Source: Parcubacteria group bacterium (GTDB lineage Bacteria; Patescibacteriota; Minisyncoccia; Phycocordibacterales; DATDWN01). From it: a stretch of 64,000 nt of DNA. Shown piece after piece: positions 4,383-49,999 of the stretch. The translations under genes and the position numbers were made by a program. The DNA lies in the NCBI GenBank assembly GCA_039740895.1, contig JBCLGS010000002.1, positions 258 to 64,257 on the forward strand, written 5' to 3'. Every line of letters begins with the position of its first letter. The first letter of the stretch is position 1. The notes below the pieces were generated by a model. It was not told the origin of the DNA and made no database searches. It saw only the letters and a list, made by a program, of their open reading frames with translations.

Positions 4383-4391
4383 TTATCCACA
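4383..4391 (+). promoter_or_regulatory. perfect DnaA-box 9-mer TTATCCACA
   Basis: Exact match to the DnaA box consensus; further perfect copies (as TGTGGATAA) at 4697-4705, 6069-6077, 13676-13684, 46904-46912. Confidence 0.3.
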
Positions 4392-4591: not shown

Positions 4592-4771
4592 AAGTTTATT
4601 GCTTATTTTTCTTTCTGCTATTACCCCATATGTGTATTTTAACATTATTTAATAAATAATTGCAAAACCTAACCAGTATCACACTCTTCTCTTTCCTTGT
4701 GGATAACTCACTTTGACATTTTATTACTAACTTGCTAATATAATTAAATTATGGCTTCGGCCTCCGAGAAA

Positions 4772-4799
4772 ATCCGCTTTATGCGGGTTTTCGTTTTAT
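4772..4799. terminator. rho-independent terminator-like hairpin (ATCCGC..GCGGGT + T-run), bidirectional
   Basis: aaaatccgctttatgcgggttttcgtttta immediately 3-prime of the minus-strand 129-aa gene stop (4796). Confidence 0.45.
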
Positions 4800-5185
4800 T
4801 GAGGGAAAAATTCCAAAACTCCTCTGATTATAGATTTAAAATCATCATTTGAGATTGTTCCAACCTTTCTTACAAATCTCTTCGTACTAACAGTTCTAAT
4901 CTGGGTCAAAACAACAAAATATTCATTTTTATCGAAAATAAATTTATAATGAAACTTGTCACTTTTCATCTTAGAAGTTATAGGTAAAACCCAAGTCATT
5001 TGTTTGTTAAACTTTCTCAAGACTAAAGCTGTTCTCTCATATTGATTATTTTTACCATCAATCTCAATTCCGATATTTAACCCGAGTGACATCCACCAAA
5101 TTTCTCTTTCATTAACTCCCAAATTATCAGATTTTTTATCTATTATTTTCTTTAACTTATTCCAACTATCAAAATCTTTTTCCAT
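4796..5185 (-). CDS. MazF/PemK-family mRNA interferase-like toxin
   Basis: 129 aa; EREIWWMSLGLNIGIEIDGKNNQYERTALVL...VLPITS...FVVLTQIRTVSTKRFVRKVGTISNDDFKSIIRGVL follows the MazF/PemK pattern (RGDIW.V.L.P..G.E..G.RP.LV.S......V.P.T......Q.R..D..R); lies 15 bp downstream of lexA in the same operon. Confidence 0.5.
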   Translation of the reverse strand: MEKDFDSWNKLKKIIDKKSDNLGVNEREIWWMSLGLNIGIEIDGKNNQYERTALVLRKFNKQMTWVLPITSKMKSDKFHYKFIFDKNEYFVVLTQIRTVSTKRFVRKVGTISNDDFKSIIRGVLEFFPQ

Positions 5186-5200
5186 TATAGTTAAACAATT

Positions 5201-5776
5201 TTAATACTTCCGTATGACCCCTTTGACGATTGCTGCGACGCGAAGTTCATATTGAGGGTAAATGGGTCGGTAATTTTTATTTGCTGGTAATAAATAAACT
5301 TTACCGTCTTTTTTCTTGTAGTATTTCATAGTCCAGCCCCCATCCACTTCGGCAATAACAATGTCACCGTCTTTTGGTTCTCCTTTTCTTTCTGCCACAA
5401 CTAAATCTCCTTCTTTAATTCCTTCATCAATCATTGAATCTCCTTTAACCTCCAATAGGTATGTGGAATCTTTATATCGTATTAAATAATCATCAATATT
5501 TATCATATTTAAAGTCTCTTCTTCTGCCAGTGTAGGAAACCCTGCTTCTACAAGACCGAGAAGTGGGATTTCTCCCATTAGTCTCTTCGGCGTAAGCTTT
5601 CCTCGCGAGTCTTTGTCTACCGTTCCGTCATCAACTAATTTATTTATGAGTTTGTAAACAGCATTTTTAGACTTGAAGTCGACAAGGTCCATGATTTCCT
5701 TGTAGCCAGGCATTCTTTTATTACTTTTATAGAAAGCAATAATTTTATTTTTTTGTCGTAAAAAATTATTTTCCAT
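5201..5776 (-). CDS. lexA: LexA repressor (SOS transcriptional repressor, S24 peptidase)
   Basis: 191 aa; N-terminal winged HTH, LVEAG cleavage region, GDSM serine and a downstream Lys (WTMKYYKK) typical of the LexA Ser-Lys dyad. Confidence 0.85.
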   Translation of the reverse strand: MENNFLRQKNKIIAFYKSNKRMPGYKEIMDLVDFKSKNAVYKLINKLVDDGTVDKDSRGKLTPKRLMGEIPLLGLVEAGFPTLAEEETLNMINIDDYLIRYKDSTYLLEVKGDSMIDEGIKEGDLVVAERKGEPKDGDIVIAEVDGGWTMKYYKKKDGKVYLLPANKNYRPIYPQYELRVAAIVKGVIRKY

Positions 5777-5781
5777 AGTAT

Positions 5782-6003
5782 TTAAAATATAAAAACATTA
5801 GAAAGACTAAGTGGTCGACCAAACCACCCAGAGTTTACTTCACGATTTATCTCGTTATCCAAACCTTTGAGACTACAAAGAATAAATTTATGTCTTTTGG
5901 CCTCCCGAATATATGAGAGACCCTTAATGATTTTCTCATCAATCTGATCATTTAAAACTTCTAACTCACTTCTCAATGTTTTTTCTAAATTTTGTTTACT
6001 CAT
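5782..6003 (-). CDS. hypothetical small protein (73 aa), first gene of the lexA operon; possible antitoxin partner of the MazF-like gene
   Basis: ORF ends 5 bp upstream of lexA; no recognisable family; the GAAC-N4-GTTC box lies just upstream of its start. Confidence 0.3.
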   Translation of the reverse strand: MSKQNLEKTLRSELEVLNDQIDEKIIKGLSYIREAKRHKFILCSLKGLDNEINREVNSGWFGRPLSLSNVFIF

Positions 6004-6038
6004 GGTTTTTTGCTGTTATTTATATATAGATAGTATAA

Positions 6039-6054
6039 GTGAACCCAAGTTCAC
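6039..6054. promoter_or_regulatory. putative LexA (SOS, Cheo-type) box GTGAACCCAAGTTCAC overlapping the promoter of the 73aa-lexA-mazF-like operon
   Basis: Perfect palindrome matching the Gram-positive-type SOS box GAAC-N4-GTTC; located about 35 bp upstream of the operon start, adjacent to TTGCTG ... TAGTAT/TATAAG promoter-like hexamers. Confidence 0.5.
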
Positions 6055-6069
6055 TGTCAAGAAAATACT

Positions 6070-6145
6070 GTGGATAAGGGAAACGAAGTGGATAAGGGAA
6101 ACGAAGTGGACACTTATGCATCAAGTACTCTTGAGGCCACTTATG
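6070..6145 (+). repeat. inverted copy (~76 bp, ~1 mismatch) of the tandem-repeat block that forms the C-terminal extension of rpsP (16403-16479)
   Basis: gtggataagggaaacgaagtggataagggaaacgaagtggacacttatgcatcaagtactcttgaggccacttatgc is the reverse complement of the rpsP 3-prime coding repeat; here intergenic with no start codon. Confidence 0.85.
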
Positions 6146-13576: not shown

Positions 13577-13758
13577 TTTTTACTCTCCTATCAAAGAACT
13601 TTTAGCTTCGTTGCCATCATAACACACTAAGTATACCTTTGTCAAAACCTTTTCAGGAAGTGTGGACACTTACACTGTGGATAAGCAAGTTTCCAGGAGG
13701 GTACCCTCCGTGGACCCCTATAATTCTTTAACTTTCAAATCACCAAGCGAATCAATTT

Positions 13759-45442: not shown

Positions 45443-45730
45443 TTATTTTAAAGGAATTTTAGTGCTTTTTATTAGTTGCAATTTTTGTTCCCTGCTCAAC
45501 ATTTTTATCTCACCTTCCCGGCGGCGAGATTCACTATATGTTTCAAATTTTTCTGAGTGCATCAAAACAGTCGGCCTGCGAATTTTTGTGTAGTGCGCTC
45601 CAGATTTTAAATTGTTATGTTGATGCAGTCTCTTTTTAAGATTATTCGTGGACCCGATATAGAAAGTTTTATCTGCACATTGAAGGATGTAAACGAAATA
45701 AGGTATTTTAACTAAAATTTTTTCGCTCAT
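45443..45730 (-). CDS. GIY-YIG nuclease-domain protein
   Basis: KIPYFVYILQCADKTFYIGSTNNLKKRLHQHN; start taken at MSEKI (the ORF extends to 45766). Confidence 0.7.
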   Translation of the reverse strand: MSEKILVKIPYFVYILQCADKTFYIGSTNNLKKRLHQHNNLKSGAHYTKIRRPTVLMHSEKFETYSESRRREGEIKMLSREQKLQLIKSTKIPLK

Positions 45731-45818
45731 ATTTATATTATATCGTAAATGGCGGCTGACCCCCATTTCCCTTGCTACTTTTACATGGAGAAGTGTTTTA
45801 TTTGTGCTAGAATACTAA

Positions 45819-46690: not shown

Positions 46691-46916
46691 AGTTAGCAAG
46701 GGCGACATTTGCGAAGTTCGTCAGAATGCTCGAGTACACAATTAGGGCAACAAATTATTTTGTATTTCATATAGTAAATAACTCACCTTTTGAATTCTTC
46801 CGTGCGGTAAGTATACCAGAGTTTGCGTCCAAAGTATTTAATACTCTATACCCCTCGTTACCTATGGGTATAAATTTATCGTTTAGATTTATAAAATATG
46901 GATGTGGATAACTTAG

Positions 46917-46958
46917 CTTTGCCTTTCGGCTTCCGTTCGGTTATAATCAAATGGTAGC
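46917..46958 (+). promoter_or_regulatory. sigma70-like promoter TTGCCT-17-TATAAT for the LexA-methyltransferase gene
   Basis: Near-consensus hexamers ending 25 bp upstream of the ATG at 46981; the spacer contains a TTCGG direct repeat and is followed by the ATTGCAAT palindrome. Confidence 0.45.
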
Positions 46959-46980
46959 GTAAATTGATCTTAATTGCAAT

Positions 46981-48558
46981 ATGTCAAACCTCACAAAAAA
47001 GCAAAAACAAGTCTTCGACTTTATAAATACCTATATTGCCGAAAATGGCATATCTCCGACCATAGAAGAAATACGAAAAAAACTGAAACTCAAAGCAGTT
47101 TCTACTATTCACGAACATATCAATTCCCTCAGAGATAAGGGATATCTCTCAAAGTCTGAAAATTCAGCTAGAAGTCTATTGTTAAAGAAAGAAATCAAGT
47201 CTGTTGTTGAGATTCCTATTGTTGGGCGAATTACTGCGGGATATCCAATAGAAGCGATTGAAAATACAGAAGACACAATTTCCATAATCAATCCTAGTAT
47301 AAAAACTGCCGAGGGATACTATGCTTTGCGTGTTGTTGGGGACAGTATGATTGGTGAAGGAATTTTTGATAACGATATCGTGATAATCAAAAAACAATCG
47401 GTGGCTGAAAATGGACAAACAGTGGTTGCTATTATTGACGATAATGAAGCAACTTTAAAGAAATTGTATCGAGATAAAAATAGATTTAGATTGGAACCTA
47501 GAAATCAATCGATGCTTCCTTTTTACAGAAAAGAAGTAGAGGTCAGAGGTGTTGTCGTTCAAATAATAAGTAATATAAATAATGAAACAGTAGATATTCC
47601 TTCTAAAAAGACTAAGCATGGATTCAAAACAATCGATCTTTTTGCTGGAGTCGGTGGTATACGATTAGGTTTTGAAAATGCCGGATTCAAAACAGTTTTT
47701 GCAAATGATTTTGAGCCAAAATGTAAAGACACTTATGACCTTAATTTTAAAGATTCAAAGTTGGTTATTGAGGATATTAGAAAAATCGGGATTGACGATT
47801 TACCAAAGTTTGATTTCTTGCTCGGAGGATTCCCTTGTCAGGCTTTTTCTATTGCAGGATATAGGCAAGGTTTTAATGATGAGAAAGGCAGAGGCAATTT
47901 ATTTTTTGATATTGTAAGAATTCTTGATGCACGAAAACCTGAAGGTTTTCTACTTGAAAATGTAAAAAACTTGAAAAGCCATGATGGAGGTAAAACATTT
48001 CAAATAATTCTAGACACCTTAGAAAGTCTTGGCTATTATGTCAAAACAAAAGTTTTAAATAGTATGGAGTACGGAAATATCCCGCAAAATAGAGAGCGTA
48101 TTTATATCATAGGTTTTAGAAATAAAGACTATTCAGATAAATTTGAGTTTCCTAGCCCAGTAAAATTAACTGTAAAAATTACTGATTTATTAGAGAAAAA
48201 TGTACCTGAAAAATACTATTACAATGGCAAGCCATTGTTCGAAAAATTAAAAGGCTCTATAAAAGAAGAAGGAAAAGTATATCAATGGCGTAGGCAGTAT
48301 GTCCGAGAAAACAAAAGAGGTGTTTGTCCGACACTAACCGCAAATATGGGTACAGGTGGACATAATGTGCCAATCATAAAAGATAAAAAAGGTATCAGAA
48401 AATTAACCCCGCTTGAATGTGCACGAATACAAGGTTTTCCAAGTAGTTATAAAATACCTAAACTTGCAGATTCTGCTTTATATAAGCAATTTGGGAACTC
48501 TGTTAGTGTCCCAGTTATTGAAGCTGTCGGAAAACAGATGATGAAAGCAATGGAATAA
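46981..48558 (+). CDS. fusion protein: full LexA-like repressor (wHTH + S24 self-cleaving peptidase) joined to a C5 cytosine-specific DNA methyltransferase
   Basis: Residues 1-~200: LexA DNA-binding domain (QVFDFINTYIAENGISPTIEEIRKKL), cleavage-site region GRITAGYPIEA, catalytic GDSM Ser and TLKKLY Lys, C-terminal VRGVVVQIIS. Residues ~215-525: MTase motif I DLFAGVGG, IV GFPCQAFS, VI ENV, VIII QNRERIY, X GNSVSVPV. Single uninterrupted frame verified across the junction (47521-47700). Confidence 0.85.
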   Translation: MSNLTKKQKQVFDFINTYIAENGISPTIEEIRKKLKLKAVSTIHEHINSLRDKGYLSKSENSARSLLLKKEIKSVVEIPIVGRITAGYPIEAIENTEDTISIINPSIKTAEGYYALRVVGDSMIGEGIFDNDIVIIKKQSVAENGQTVVAIIDDNEATLKKLYRDKNRFRLEPRNQSMLPFYRKEVEVRGVVVQIISNINNETVDIPSKKTKHGFKTIDLFAGVGGIRLGFENAGFKTVFANDFEPKCKDTYDLNFKDSKLVIEDIRKIGIDDLPKFDFLLGGFPCQAFSIAGYRQGFNDEKGRGNLFFDIVRILDARKPEGFLLENVKNLKSHDGGKTFQIILDTLESLGYYVKTKVLNSMEYGNIPQNRERIYIIGFRNKDYSDKFEFPSPVKLTVKITDLLEKNVPEKYYYNGKPLFEKLKGSIKEEGKVYQWRRQYVRENKRGVCPTLTANMGTGGHNVPIIKDKKGIRKLTPLECARIQGFPSSYKIPKLADSALYKQFGNSVSVPVIEAVGKQMMKAME

Positions 48559-48563
48559 GAAAA

Positions 48564-49655
48564 TTATTTTATATATTTCCTTATATTATCAAGCATAACA
48601 TTCTCCTTATTTGGGATTTTATCTATAATAGATTTATGCATAAAATATTCACCATTTTTTGAACTAGACCTATCTAATAACTGGAACTTGATGATATAGG
48701 TTTTATTTGTTTCTAATTCTATGTCATTTATTTTTGCCTTACCTATTGTATATATTGTAATTGAGCTTTTACTGTTTTTCAAAACCTGAATTTTGTCTGC
48801 ATTTTCAACATATATATCAATTAATTTGTGCTTTCTATTGTTATCCAATTTATTTTCTTTCCAACTATATAAATTATCTATTTTTTTATTTACCCAATCT
48901 GAAAAAGACGCGGTTCGTGGTAGTATTCTTGGTGTTCGAGTTTCGTTTATTCCCTTTATGTAAAATGGACTTTCTCCTTCATTGCATAAGTTGGAATACT
49001 GCATAAAATCACTCGCTAAACAAACTGTAATAAGTCTCAGGGAGCCTAAATTCGTGTTATCCCGTCTAATCTTTGTAACTGATGATAGATCTTTATCTAC
49101 ATTTGTCTTTATAAAAACACTGTCGTCCATTTTTAATTTATCATAAACATCTTCACTTATAACTGTTTTCTCAAAAAAAGGCAGTAAATAATCACTATCA
49201 AGATCTGTCTCAACCATTACAAGATATTGCTTGTCGTAACCTTGATTTCTCAAACTAACCATATACTGTCCTTTTTTGAATGATTTAACTTCAATTTGCG
49301 GAGCATTATCTAAGGCACACCATTTATTCACATACTCGACAAATGGTATTGCCTTTGTTCCAATTTTTACACCCAGAACATCTGGGGCAATACCAGATTT
49401 TTTAGGGTTATATTCATAATAATCAGATATAACTTCTAGATTATCTGCTATTTTAGGAAGAAAATATTTATTAAAAATAATACTTTCAGGAATGATATTA
49501 ATCCAACGATCAAATACGCCTCCAATATAATCGCTTTTCCCACTAAGACCCCCGTACATTCTGCCTCGCTGAGCCATTGAGCAGACAAAATAGATGTATG
49601 GAACGACATCTTGTTTACTGATTATAATTTTATTGATTTTTGGCATCATTTTCAT
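48564..49655 (-). CDS. putative type II restriction endonuclease cognate to the adjacent C5-MTase (hypothetical protein by sequence)
   Basis: 363 aa; convergent with the MTase gene and 5 bp from it, the typical R-M arrangement; candidate PD...EVK catalytic residues (IAPDV ... LDNAPQIEVK); no family-level similarity recognised. Confidence 0.4.
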   Translation of the reverse strand: MKMMPKINKIIISKQDVVPYIYFVCSMAQRGRMYGGLSGKSDYIGGVFDRWINIIPESIIFNKYFLPKIADNLEVISDYYEYNPKKSGIAPDVLGVKIGTKAIPFVEYVNKWCALDNAPQIEVKSFKKGQYMVSLRNQGYDKQYLVMVETDLDSDYLLPFFEKTVISEDVYDKLKMDDSVFIKTNVDKDLSSVTKIRRDNTNLGSLRLITVCLASDFMQYSNLCNEGESPFYIKGINETRTPRILPRTASFSDWVNKKIDNLYSWKENKLDNNRKHKLIDIYVENADKIQVLKNSKSSITIYTIGKAKINDIELETNKTYIIKFQLLDRSSSKNGEYFMHKSIIDKIPNKENVMLDNIRKYIK

Positions 49656-49753
49656 ATTACTTAACGAAATAGTCTAAAGGCTTTTTGTAAAGTTTTGCGA
49701 ATTCTTTCAACTGTAAAACATCAAATCGTCTTTATCCTGATTCTATTTTTTGG

Positions 49754-49822
49754 CTGCGGGACTTGGGGTCGAACCAAGATTCACGCTTTCAGAGAGCGTT
49801 TGCCTACCATTAGCAGATCCCG
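49754..49822 (-). tRNA. tRNA-Gln (anticodon CUG)
   Basis: Cloverleaf: acceptor GCGGGAT/GTCCCGC, anticodon stem ACGCT/AGCGT with loop CTCTGAA (CUG), T-arm CTTGG-TTCGACC-CCAAG; no encoded CCA. Confidence 0.7.
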
Positions 49823-49883
49823 CAATATTTTATTATCAAACTTACTAATCCCCCTCTATTTTAAGTAATATTTAGTTGCGTTA

Positions 49884-49929: not shown

Positions 49930-49977
49930 TTACCCGCCCGCCACGCAAGCCGAAGTGTGCGAGGCGTTGCGGGCGGG

Positions 49978-49999
49978 CCATTAGCAGATCCCGCAATAC
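49978..49999. repeat. 21-bp duplicate of the 5-prime end of tRNA-Gln (ccattagcagatcccgcaata), 155 bp beyond the intact tRNA
   Basis: Exact repeat of 49806-49826; the intervening segment holds a family D hairpin and a GC-rich inverted repeat (cccgcccgc...gcgggcggg). Confidence 0.8.

Follow-up and report, generated by a model that had tools for sequence, protein, structure and literature searches.

Here we report that a gene of a Parcubacteria group bacterium (46981..48558, plus strand) fuses a full LexA repressor to a full cytosine-5 (C5) DNA methyltransferase (MTase) in one reading frame. The gene lies in a 64,000-nucleotide stretch of contig JBCLGS010000002.1 (assembly GCA_039740895.1), referred to below as the window, and is, judging from its neighbourhood and that of its relatives, the modification (M) subunit of a compact mobile Type II restriction-modification (R-M) cassette. 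We propose, with a confidence somewhat better than even, that its product is an autorepressing MTase whose repression would be lifted by damage-induced self-cleavage, shifting the balance to modification. MTases that double as repressors are already known; what would be new is the repressor module, a complete and apparently cleavage-competent LexA with a direct-repeat operator.

A complete LexA fused in frame to a complete C5 methyltransferase

The original prediction, made from the letters of the window, had read a complete LexA and a complete C5 MTase from a single open reading frame (ORF), and Pfam, NCBIfam and PDB matches confirm this. The ORF opens with ATG and encodes 525 aa plus stop, with zero internal stops. 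All three Pfam models named in the prediction (LexA_DNA_bind, Peptidase_S24 and DNA_methylase) match the protein, placing the LexA winged-helix DNA-binding domain at residues 1-64 (46981..47172; PF01726, E 5e-17; recognition helix AVSTIHEHI), the Peptidase S24 or LexA C-terminal domain at residues 79-193 (47215..47559; PF00717, E 5e-29) and the C5 cytosine DNA methyltransferase domain at residues 215-521 (47623..48543; PF00145, E 2.6e-95, with full-length coverage of the profile), all on the plus strand. The inter-domain linker of about 15 residues (199-214; 47575..47622, plus strand) is the most variable stretch of the protein and is nearly constant in length. Residues 1-199 score 180.8 bits against the lexA equivalog TIGR00498, for which the cut-off is 110.95, and residues 218-520 score 347.8 bits against the dcm model TIGR00675. 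Among PDB sequences, residues 3-196 match Thermotoga maritima LexA (3k2z, 3e-30; full-length LexA proteins range from 3e-30 to 1e-25), and residues 210-517 match M.HhaI (2e-60). An AlphaFold2 (AF2) model of the fusion has a predicted local distance difference test score (pLDDT) of 72, falling below 50 in the disordered linker (residues 199-213); it gives the N-terminal domain three helices and a beta hairpin, as fits a LexA winged helix, and Foldseek returns M.HhaI as its top matches, so that both folds are confirmed while the inter-domain geometry is uninformative. The motifs quoted in the prediction are all present: GRITAGYP with the cleavage site A86-G87 (47236-47241), GDSM with Ser122 (47344-47346) and TLKKLY with Lys160 (47458-47460) as the S24 dyad, then DLFAGVGG, GFPCQAFS with the catalytic Cys286 (47836-47838), ENV, QNRERIY and GNSVSVPV, the target-recognition region occupying about residues 400-480.

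A search space of about 5.8 billion proteins yielded, in the best 120 clusters examined, the same three Pfam domains throughout, at 82-100% identity and a length of about 525 aa. These clusters stem from NCBI, JGI, ENA and Logan assemblies and from many candidate Patescibacteria groups, and bear the automatic names 'transcriptional repressor LexA' or 'cytosine-specific methyltransferase'. In a scan of one genome per species, relatives are encoded in 251 genomes, the carriers of the fusion being almost all Patescibacteria. The fusion is one uninterrupted ORF in all 86 loci compared (85 fetched related loci plus the window's own), and the continuity of the frame over the junction is thus real. 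That an assembly or frameshift artefact merged two genes is refuted by these single ORFs from independent assemblies and sources, by the at least 120 clusters of about 525 aa and by the near-constant length of the linker, and we give the idea practically no credence. Among the phage, plasmid (tblastn) and IMG/VR matches listed, the fused form is absent and the MTase part alone is covered; a further 2 phage and 133 plasmid records flagged at ≥80% query coverage lie outside the inspected set and may be joined pieces. The original prediction was aware of no described fusion to an intact self-cleaving LexA; in the databases, however, the architecture is common. Publications on LexA-methyltransferase fusions, on S24 domains with methylases and on LexA with R-M systems in Patescibacteria or the candidate phyla radiation yielded no description, with the limit that one study of the LexA regulon in Patescibacteria (Environmental Microbiology, 2017) was outside this coverage and could mention the paralogue; a 2025 review of R-M biology leaves LexA unmentioned. 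The architecture is uncharacterised rather than unseen, being both abundant and auto-annotated.

Within the family, the catalytic residues of the LexA half and of the MTase half hardly vary. Aligning 84 full-length sequences shows A86, S122 and K160 in 84/84 and G87 in 83/84; S41, T42, H44 and H46 of the winged helix and MTase motifs I, IV (PC), VI (ENV), VIII and X are invariant, and the target-recognition domain blocks are conserved at 92-98% across the fusions. The winged helix and the S24 core each have a ratio of nonsynonymous to synonymous substitution rates (dN/dS) of 0.09; the linker reaches 0.43 and the MTase 0.05, with synonymous sites saturated (dS 1.3-2). No column of the linker is invariant, and invariance in the otherwise variable hinge (residues 71-95) is confined to G82, I84 and A86, at the scissile bond. 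At 50% identity the architecture collapses to essentially one cluster and the divergent protein P0204 (locus L093), 777 aa long with an extra N6-MTase-like tail and 37% identical overall, which retains the cleavage Ala-Gly, Ser and Lys; the remaining long MTase relatives in this library carry an N-terminal RE_Bsp6I, RadC or nothing recognised. Judging from the invariant hinge residues at the scissile bond and from the Ala-Gly/Ser/Lys set, which even P0204 keeps, self-cleavage, beyond DNA binding, appears to be under selection, and we regard this pattern as the strongest indirect argument for it.

The restriction-modification cassette and its exchanged nucleases

The original prediction had guessed at an R-M setting, and the fusion gene indeed sits inside an R-M cassette with a convergent partner. 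The cassette spans 46903-49750: in BLASTN of the window against the related loci, homology with nearly all of them begins sharply at 46902/46903 and, for those sharing the window's partner gene, ends at 49750, against a tRNA-Gln, while the flanking genes differ in every genome. Rfam has no match in the region. The partner (48564..49655, minus strand), a presumed restriction endonuclease (REase; gene R) of 363 aa, lies tail-to-tail with the fusion at 5 nt from the MTase stop, and in nearly every locus a convergent ORF likewise stops no more than about 10 nt from the stop of the fusion. Over 79 related cassettes these ORFs fall into eight unrelated families, namely F1 (32 loci, Pfam RE_Bsp6I), F2 (14 loci including the window, no Pfam match), F3 (7 loci, RE_NgoFVII_C), F4 (6 loci, PDDEXK_5) and F5-F8 (20 loci, none significant in Pfam). 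Family F2 has an invariant PD(91-92)...E122-x-K124 motif, the window copy being intact with every family-invariant residue, and 308 homologues, all annotated hypothetical. Searches of Pfam, NCBIfam, PADLOC and PDB sequences gave no match for the window's R protein; its AF2 model, built with 24 close homologues, is poor (pLDDT 57, below 50 over the N-terminal 200 residues), and Foldseek against the PDB found nothing below E 0.25. We presume a nuclease from the PD...ExK motif, the one feature of the protein itself that speaks for it; the same position elsewhere holds RE_Bsp6I, RE_NgoFVII_C and PDDEXK_5 genes.

The MTase domain is 54-56% identical to unfused plasmid MTases, of which at least one, 56% identical and on Lactococcus plasmid pAF22, adjoins an annotated 'Bsp6I family type II restriction endonuclease', and 66-68% identical to MTases of viral contigs that are located behind a Bsp6I-like ORF; RE_Bsp6I-MTase fusions also exist in the 50%-identity library. 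Bsp6I recognises GCNGC, and NgoFVII recognises GCSGC. By homology the domain is shown to belong to the Bsp6I/GCNGC-type lineage, and its own specificity is probably GCNGC-type. The R partner is swapped among families while the target-recognition region of the MTase stays constant, and a GCNGC-type MTase that does not change could shield DNA from all such nucleases. The cassette resembles the GCNGC-specific Bsp6I, LlaDII and Fnu4HI systems in the identity of its MTase to relatives beside Bsp6I-family genes and in the RE_Bsp6I partner of 32/79 cassettes; unlike it, those systems have unfused MTases and R followed by M in tandem, whereas the partner in the window belongs to an uncharacterised 363-aa family.

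About 24 of the 79 cassettes, across five R families, carry directly upstream of R a gene for a 73-aa XRE-type helix-turn-helix (HTH) protein, which likens them to controller (C) protein systems such as PvuII, Esp1396I and AhdI. The C gene lies behind a conserved promoter region of about 60 bp with TGGAATA repeats, a probable C-box that is absent in the window; this region is conserved as tatatggcaatTTGGAATAatacacaaTGGAATActat, with a TGGAATA direct repeat, upstream of the C gene in L008, L012, L015, L040, L052 and other loci. Unlike in those systems, C is optional across the family and reduced to a remnant in the window, and M would be controlled by the fused LexA rather than by C. The remnant (49657..49749, minus strand; tblastn with the intact 73-aa protein of L001) retains codons 44-73 only (KIESG*RRFDVLQLKEFAKLYKKPLDYFVK), with an in-frame TAA and then the stop; its last 30 codons lie at 49660-49749, and neither the 5' half nor the promoter of the gene is left. 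The BLASTN block at 49648-49750 matches loci carrying other R families. Since the C remnant gives way directly to the tRNA-Gln, the window copy has lost the C gene and the C/R promoter with M and R intact, and the truncated gene, its in-frame stop and the missing promoter leave no intact C-protein control in the window.

This loss raises the alternative that R is silent here and that the LexA-MTase acts as an orphan, either a damage-responsive solitary methylase or a second SOS-type regulator. The C remnant with its in-frame stop and the homology break at 49750 speak for it, as does a scan of the window that saw no convincing promoter upstream of R. Yet R has an intact ORF in which no family-invariant residue is missing, and it stands directly downstream of a tRNA-Gln(CTG) gene (49751..49824, minus strand; ARAGORN). 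This tRNA gene shares the strand of R and abuts the shortened right end of the cassette; no terminator separates the two in the window, and the tRNA is a possible source of read-through transcription of R. The candidate operator described below, moreover, occurs in the 64 kb solely at the gene's own promoter, so that no wider regulon is visible. We judge an orphan role very improbable.

Several further features mark the right end of the cassette. An exact 21-nt direct repeat (49807-49827 and 49978-49998) consists of the first 18 nt of tRNA-Gln and 3 nt more, its second copy lying 171 nt upstream, and a 14-nt GC-rich inverted repeat falls between the copies (49933-49977); the 21-nt repeat looks like an insertion or rearrangement scar at the tRNA, beside the point of C-gene truncation. 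The R/C side of the cassette adjoins a tRNA 3' end in several unrelated genomes (L001, L008, L019, L040, L057, L062 and the window), which suggests tRNA-proximal insertion hot spots, though the cassette has no integrase. One Vogelbacteria contig (CAIRHC010000009.1) bears two LexA-MTase cassettes (L031 and L043), with R families F1 and F6, and at L024 a second fusion gene apparently follows the R/C end of one cassette at a distance of about 1.1 kb; genomes can thus hold several cassettes of the same MTase specificity. On the other side, about 1.1 kb upstream of the cassette and beyond a fatty-acid desaturase gene, a stand-alone 107-aa ORF (45443-45766, minus strand) encodes a GIY-YIG nuclease domain.

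Predicted promoter, candidate operator and the proposed damage switch

The region at about 46900-46980, to which the original prediction had pointed as regulatory, holds both a promoter and a conserved repeat. The predicted sigma-70-type promoter (46919..46947, plus strand; 10/12 in a consensus scan) comprises a -35 hexamer TTGCCT (46919-46924), a 17-nt spacer and a -10 hexamer TATAAT (46942-46947). Both hexamers are conserved across about 80 loci, within some 80 bp upstream of the fusion that are conserved over the loci in the order TGTGGATAAC, -35, 17-nt spacer, -10 and leader. The spacer is filled by a direct repeat, TTCGGcttccgTTCGG (46925..46940, plus strand; TTCGG-N6-TTCGG, 11-bp period), which is likely the operator of the fused LexA domain. 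The exact pattern occurs as a single copy in the window against 0.04 expected; slightly relaxed, it is found upstream of the fusion in 81/86 loci, with 9 other matches on both strands of 691 kb of related loci, and the same relaxed scan detected no copy at R or C promoters. The most divergent member, L085, has an unrelated promoter without TGTGGATAA and retains the repeat as TCGAAAataaaTCGAAA, inverted and downstream of the -10, and the divergent fusion of L093 has it as GTTCtgtatttTTTCGG, abutting TATAAT. Because the repeat is retained in these two loci, the candidate operator appears to travel with the LexA domain and not with the promoter hexamers. Direct control of R by the LexA domain, also considered, was dropped on account of the missing repeat at the R and C promoters. 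Nor does a multi-gene SOS-type regulon of the fused LexA emerge, the candidate operator being present once in the 64-kb window and almost nowhere else in the 691 kb of loci. The 5' leader of the fusion (46954-46980 and its equivalents, …TTGTAGCGyAAATAGATTTTTAATGCAAT-ATG) is conserved and has no Shine-Dalgarno-like sequence, and the R gene likewise has none.

The left border of the cassette carries, 7 nt upstream of the -35, a perfect match to the DnaA-box consensus, TTATCCACA (46903..46911, minus strand; TGTGGATAA on the plus strand), which is exact in 52 related loci and kept in the divergent fusion of L093. The window contains 5 perfect copies against 0.63 expected: 4383-4391 (+), 4698-4706 (-), 6069-6077 (-), 13676-13684 (-) and 46903-46911 (-). 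Each is intergenic and 5-32 nt upstream of a -35-like hexamer, the genes downstream being rpoB, one promoter without an assigned gene, the lexA operon, an M16 peptidase and the LexA-MTase; the motif is also found beside an SOS-box promoter in L075 and beside the divergent fusion in L093. It resembles an element that accompanies promoters in this lineage.

The geometry of the candidate operator, xTTC-N7-xTTC with an 11-bp period, is that of the direct repeat established as the LexA box in Alphaproteobacteria, GTTC-N7-GTTC (PMC8565304; PMC7739468), and direct-repeat recognition arose several times in LexA evolution (PMC7739468). C5 MTases in which an N-terminal extension binds an operator at the enzyme's own promoter and autoregulates the R-M system are also on record (PMC12707154, section 11; PMC6100179), and the original prediction's comparison with the M.SsoII and M.EcoRII types proves apt, the N-terminal DNA-binding extension being present and of LexA type, not a short HTH. 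Like M.SsoII, M.Ecl18kI, M.EcoRII and M.MspI, the fusion combines a C5 MTase and a DNA-binding extension with a candidate operator at its own promoter, here in the -35/-10 spacer. Unlike them, to which it is likened by layout, it carries a complete LexA of about 200 residues with an intact self-cleavage apparatus instead of an HTH of about 70 residues, its candidate operator is a direct and not an inverted repeat, and its M and R genes converge instead of sharing an intergenic control region.

The same layout is what the main rival to our model builds on, in which the protein simply represses its own gene or times the establishment of the system: the LexA part would be a dimeric DNA-binding module equivalent to the HTH of M.SsoII or M.EcoRII, and cleavage would be physiologically unused or answer to a RecA-independent cue. 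The placement of the operator within the promoter and the precedent of HTH-MTase repressors (PMC12707154; PMC6100179) fit this view well, as do IrvR, a LexA-like regulator known not to follow the RecA paradigm in its processing (PMC7101444), and the fact that recA was not seen in the window or the loci. It is the cleavage apparatus that this rival leaves unexplained: bare dimerisation would not need the scissile-bond residues that alone are invariant in an otherwise variable hinge, and the Ala-Gly bond and Ser/Lys pair stay essentially invariant over 84 sequences with saturated dS and persist in a fusion only 37% identical. On balance we consider the plain autorepressor unlikely, while giving it real weight.

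In the model that we favour, a damage-released autorepressor, the LexA part would dimerise through its S24 domain, and its two winged helices would bind TTCGG-N6-TTCGG in the spacer of the M promoter. Once accumulated, the MTase would thereby keep its own level low and, like M.SsoII, M.Ecl18kI and M.EcoRII, act both as a timer of establishment and as a homeostat. RecA filaments on damaged DNA, including DNA broken by the system's own REase at unmethylated sites, would then trigger cleavage, with the Ser122/Lys160 dyad cutting between Ala86 and Gly87, so that the DNA-binding domain is lost and the M promoter derepressed, while the S24-MTase fragment would remain active and accumulate. Stronger M transcription would also run antisense into R and lower its expression, because the 5-nt gap between M and R is too short to hold a terminator. 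Overall, damage would tip the balance to modification, a Type II analogue of restriction alleviation. We infer RecA-stimulated cleavage and this consequence from sequence, and self-protection of a cell with damaged DNA agrees better with the evidence than an answer to phage infection does.

A number of points weigh against this model. DNA binding, dimerisation, self-cleavage and RecA dependence are each deduced from conservation. If the damage were caused by phage, raising the MTase during damage would weaken defence. A 35-kDa domain attached to the S24 C-terminus through a linker of about 15 residues could hinder docking in the groove of the RecA filament (compare PMC9926225). A signature search found no recA in the 64-kb window or the fetched loci, a result that is uninformative at 64 kb. 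With C and the C/R promoter missing from the window, the local copy may be partly decayed and its R silent. The conserved DnaA-box-like motif at 46903-46911 could be the real or a second binding site. Finally, GCNGC is depleted in the window (observed/expected 0.49), but GCGC, GATC and ACGT are equally or more depleted, and because this depletion does not discriminate, the assigned specificity follows from homology only.

A further alternative is damage-triggered suicide in the manner of abortive infection or post-segregational killing, in which cleavage exposes degrons, the MTase fragment is unstable, methylation lapses and the REase kills the damaged or infected cell. In most members cleavage would leave an N-terminal fragment with the terminus ...I-A-A (Ala at position 85 in 59/84), which resembles the VAA end of cleaved E. 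coli LexA that ClpXP recognises. The two genes pair up like a toxin and its antitoxin, and post-segregational killing by Type II R-M systems is known (PMC11324026). Such a degron would, however, remove the DNA-binding fragment and not the MTase, in which there is zero evidence of instability signals; cleavage would derepress the M promoter and so oppose the loss of methylation, and existing methyl groups would last until diluted by replication, too slowly for abortive infection. Suicide therefore strikes us as improbable.

How Type II R-M systems spare their host when unmethylated self sites appear through repair, recombination or noisy expression is only partly understood. To our knowledge, damage-induced restriction alleviation is documented for Type I systems and not for Type II. 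In Type I systems, DNA damage induces such alleviation (PMC11109961; PMC12707154, section 25), and the purpose proposed here would by analogy be the same, the shielding of unmethylated self DNA arising in repair; there, host-supplied ClpXP degrades the HsdR nuclease, whereas here a rise of the methylase through cleavage of a self-encoded repressor is proposed. If our model of a damage-released autorepressor is true, a methylase with its own SOS-type switch would be a simple and portable answer, raising protection on DNA damage, and the LexA repertoire would be extended by an enzyme-fused, single-promoter paralogue with a direct-repeat operator, borne on a mobile element. That this would be the first Type II R-M system with a built-in DNA-damage sensor, and a system-encoded restriction alleviation on an 'M chassis' with exchanged nucleases (at least eight), is a bolder claim, for which we put the chances at rather less than even. 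The cassette family is in any case a natural experiment in which the REase is replaced while the MTase stays constant, with eight unrelated R families, several without known fold, and may be a source of new GCNGC-type nucleases. Its hosts, the tiny and uncultured Patescibacteria, are almost unexplored experimentally in their regulation and defence biology.

The canonical lexA of the same window

As the original prediction had noted, the fused repressor is a second LexA paralogue beside a canonical lexA (5201-5776, minus strand), which passes the TIGR00498 cut-off with 121.3 bits and shares only 29% identity with the LexA part of the fusion. The fusion shares with LexA proteins its score above the equivalog cut-off, the winged HTH, the Ala-Gly site and the Ser/Lys dyad, the direct-repeat geometry of its candidate operator being that of the alphaproteobacterial type; it differs from them in carrying a 310-residue C-terminal enzyme, in that it appears to control its own promoter only, in travelling with a mobile cassette and in coexisting with a canonical LexA that has a palindromic box. 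The promoter of the canonical gene contains a perfect palindrome, GTGAACttggGTTCAC (GTGAAC-N4-GTTCAC type), between TTGACA and TTATACT; this SOS-type box (6041-6052) is unlike the TTCGG repeat of the fusion and, because the boxes differ, the two LexA proteins probably use separate operators and share none. The canonical gene forms part of an apparent lexA operon (4796-6060, minus strand), in which a 73-aa ORF without family match precedes lexA and a PemK/MazF-like toxin ORF (4796-5185, minus strand) follows it after 15 nt, an arrangement that would be a LexA-MazF pairing under SOS control.

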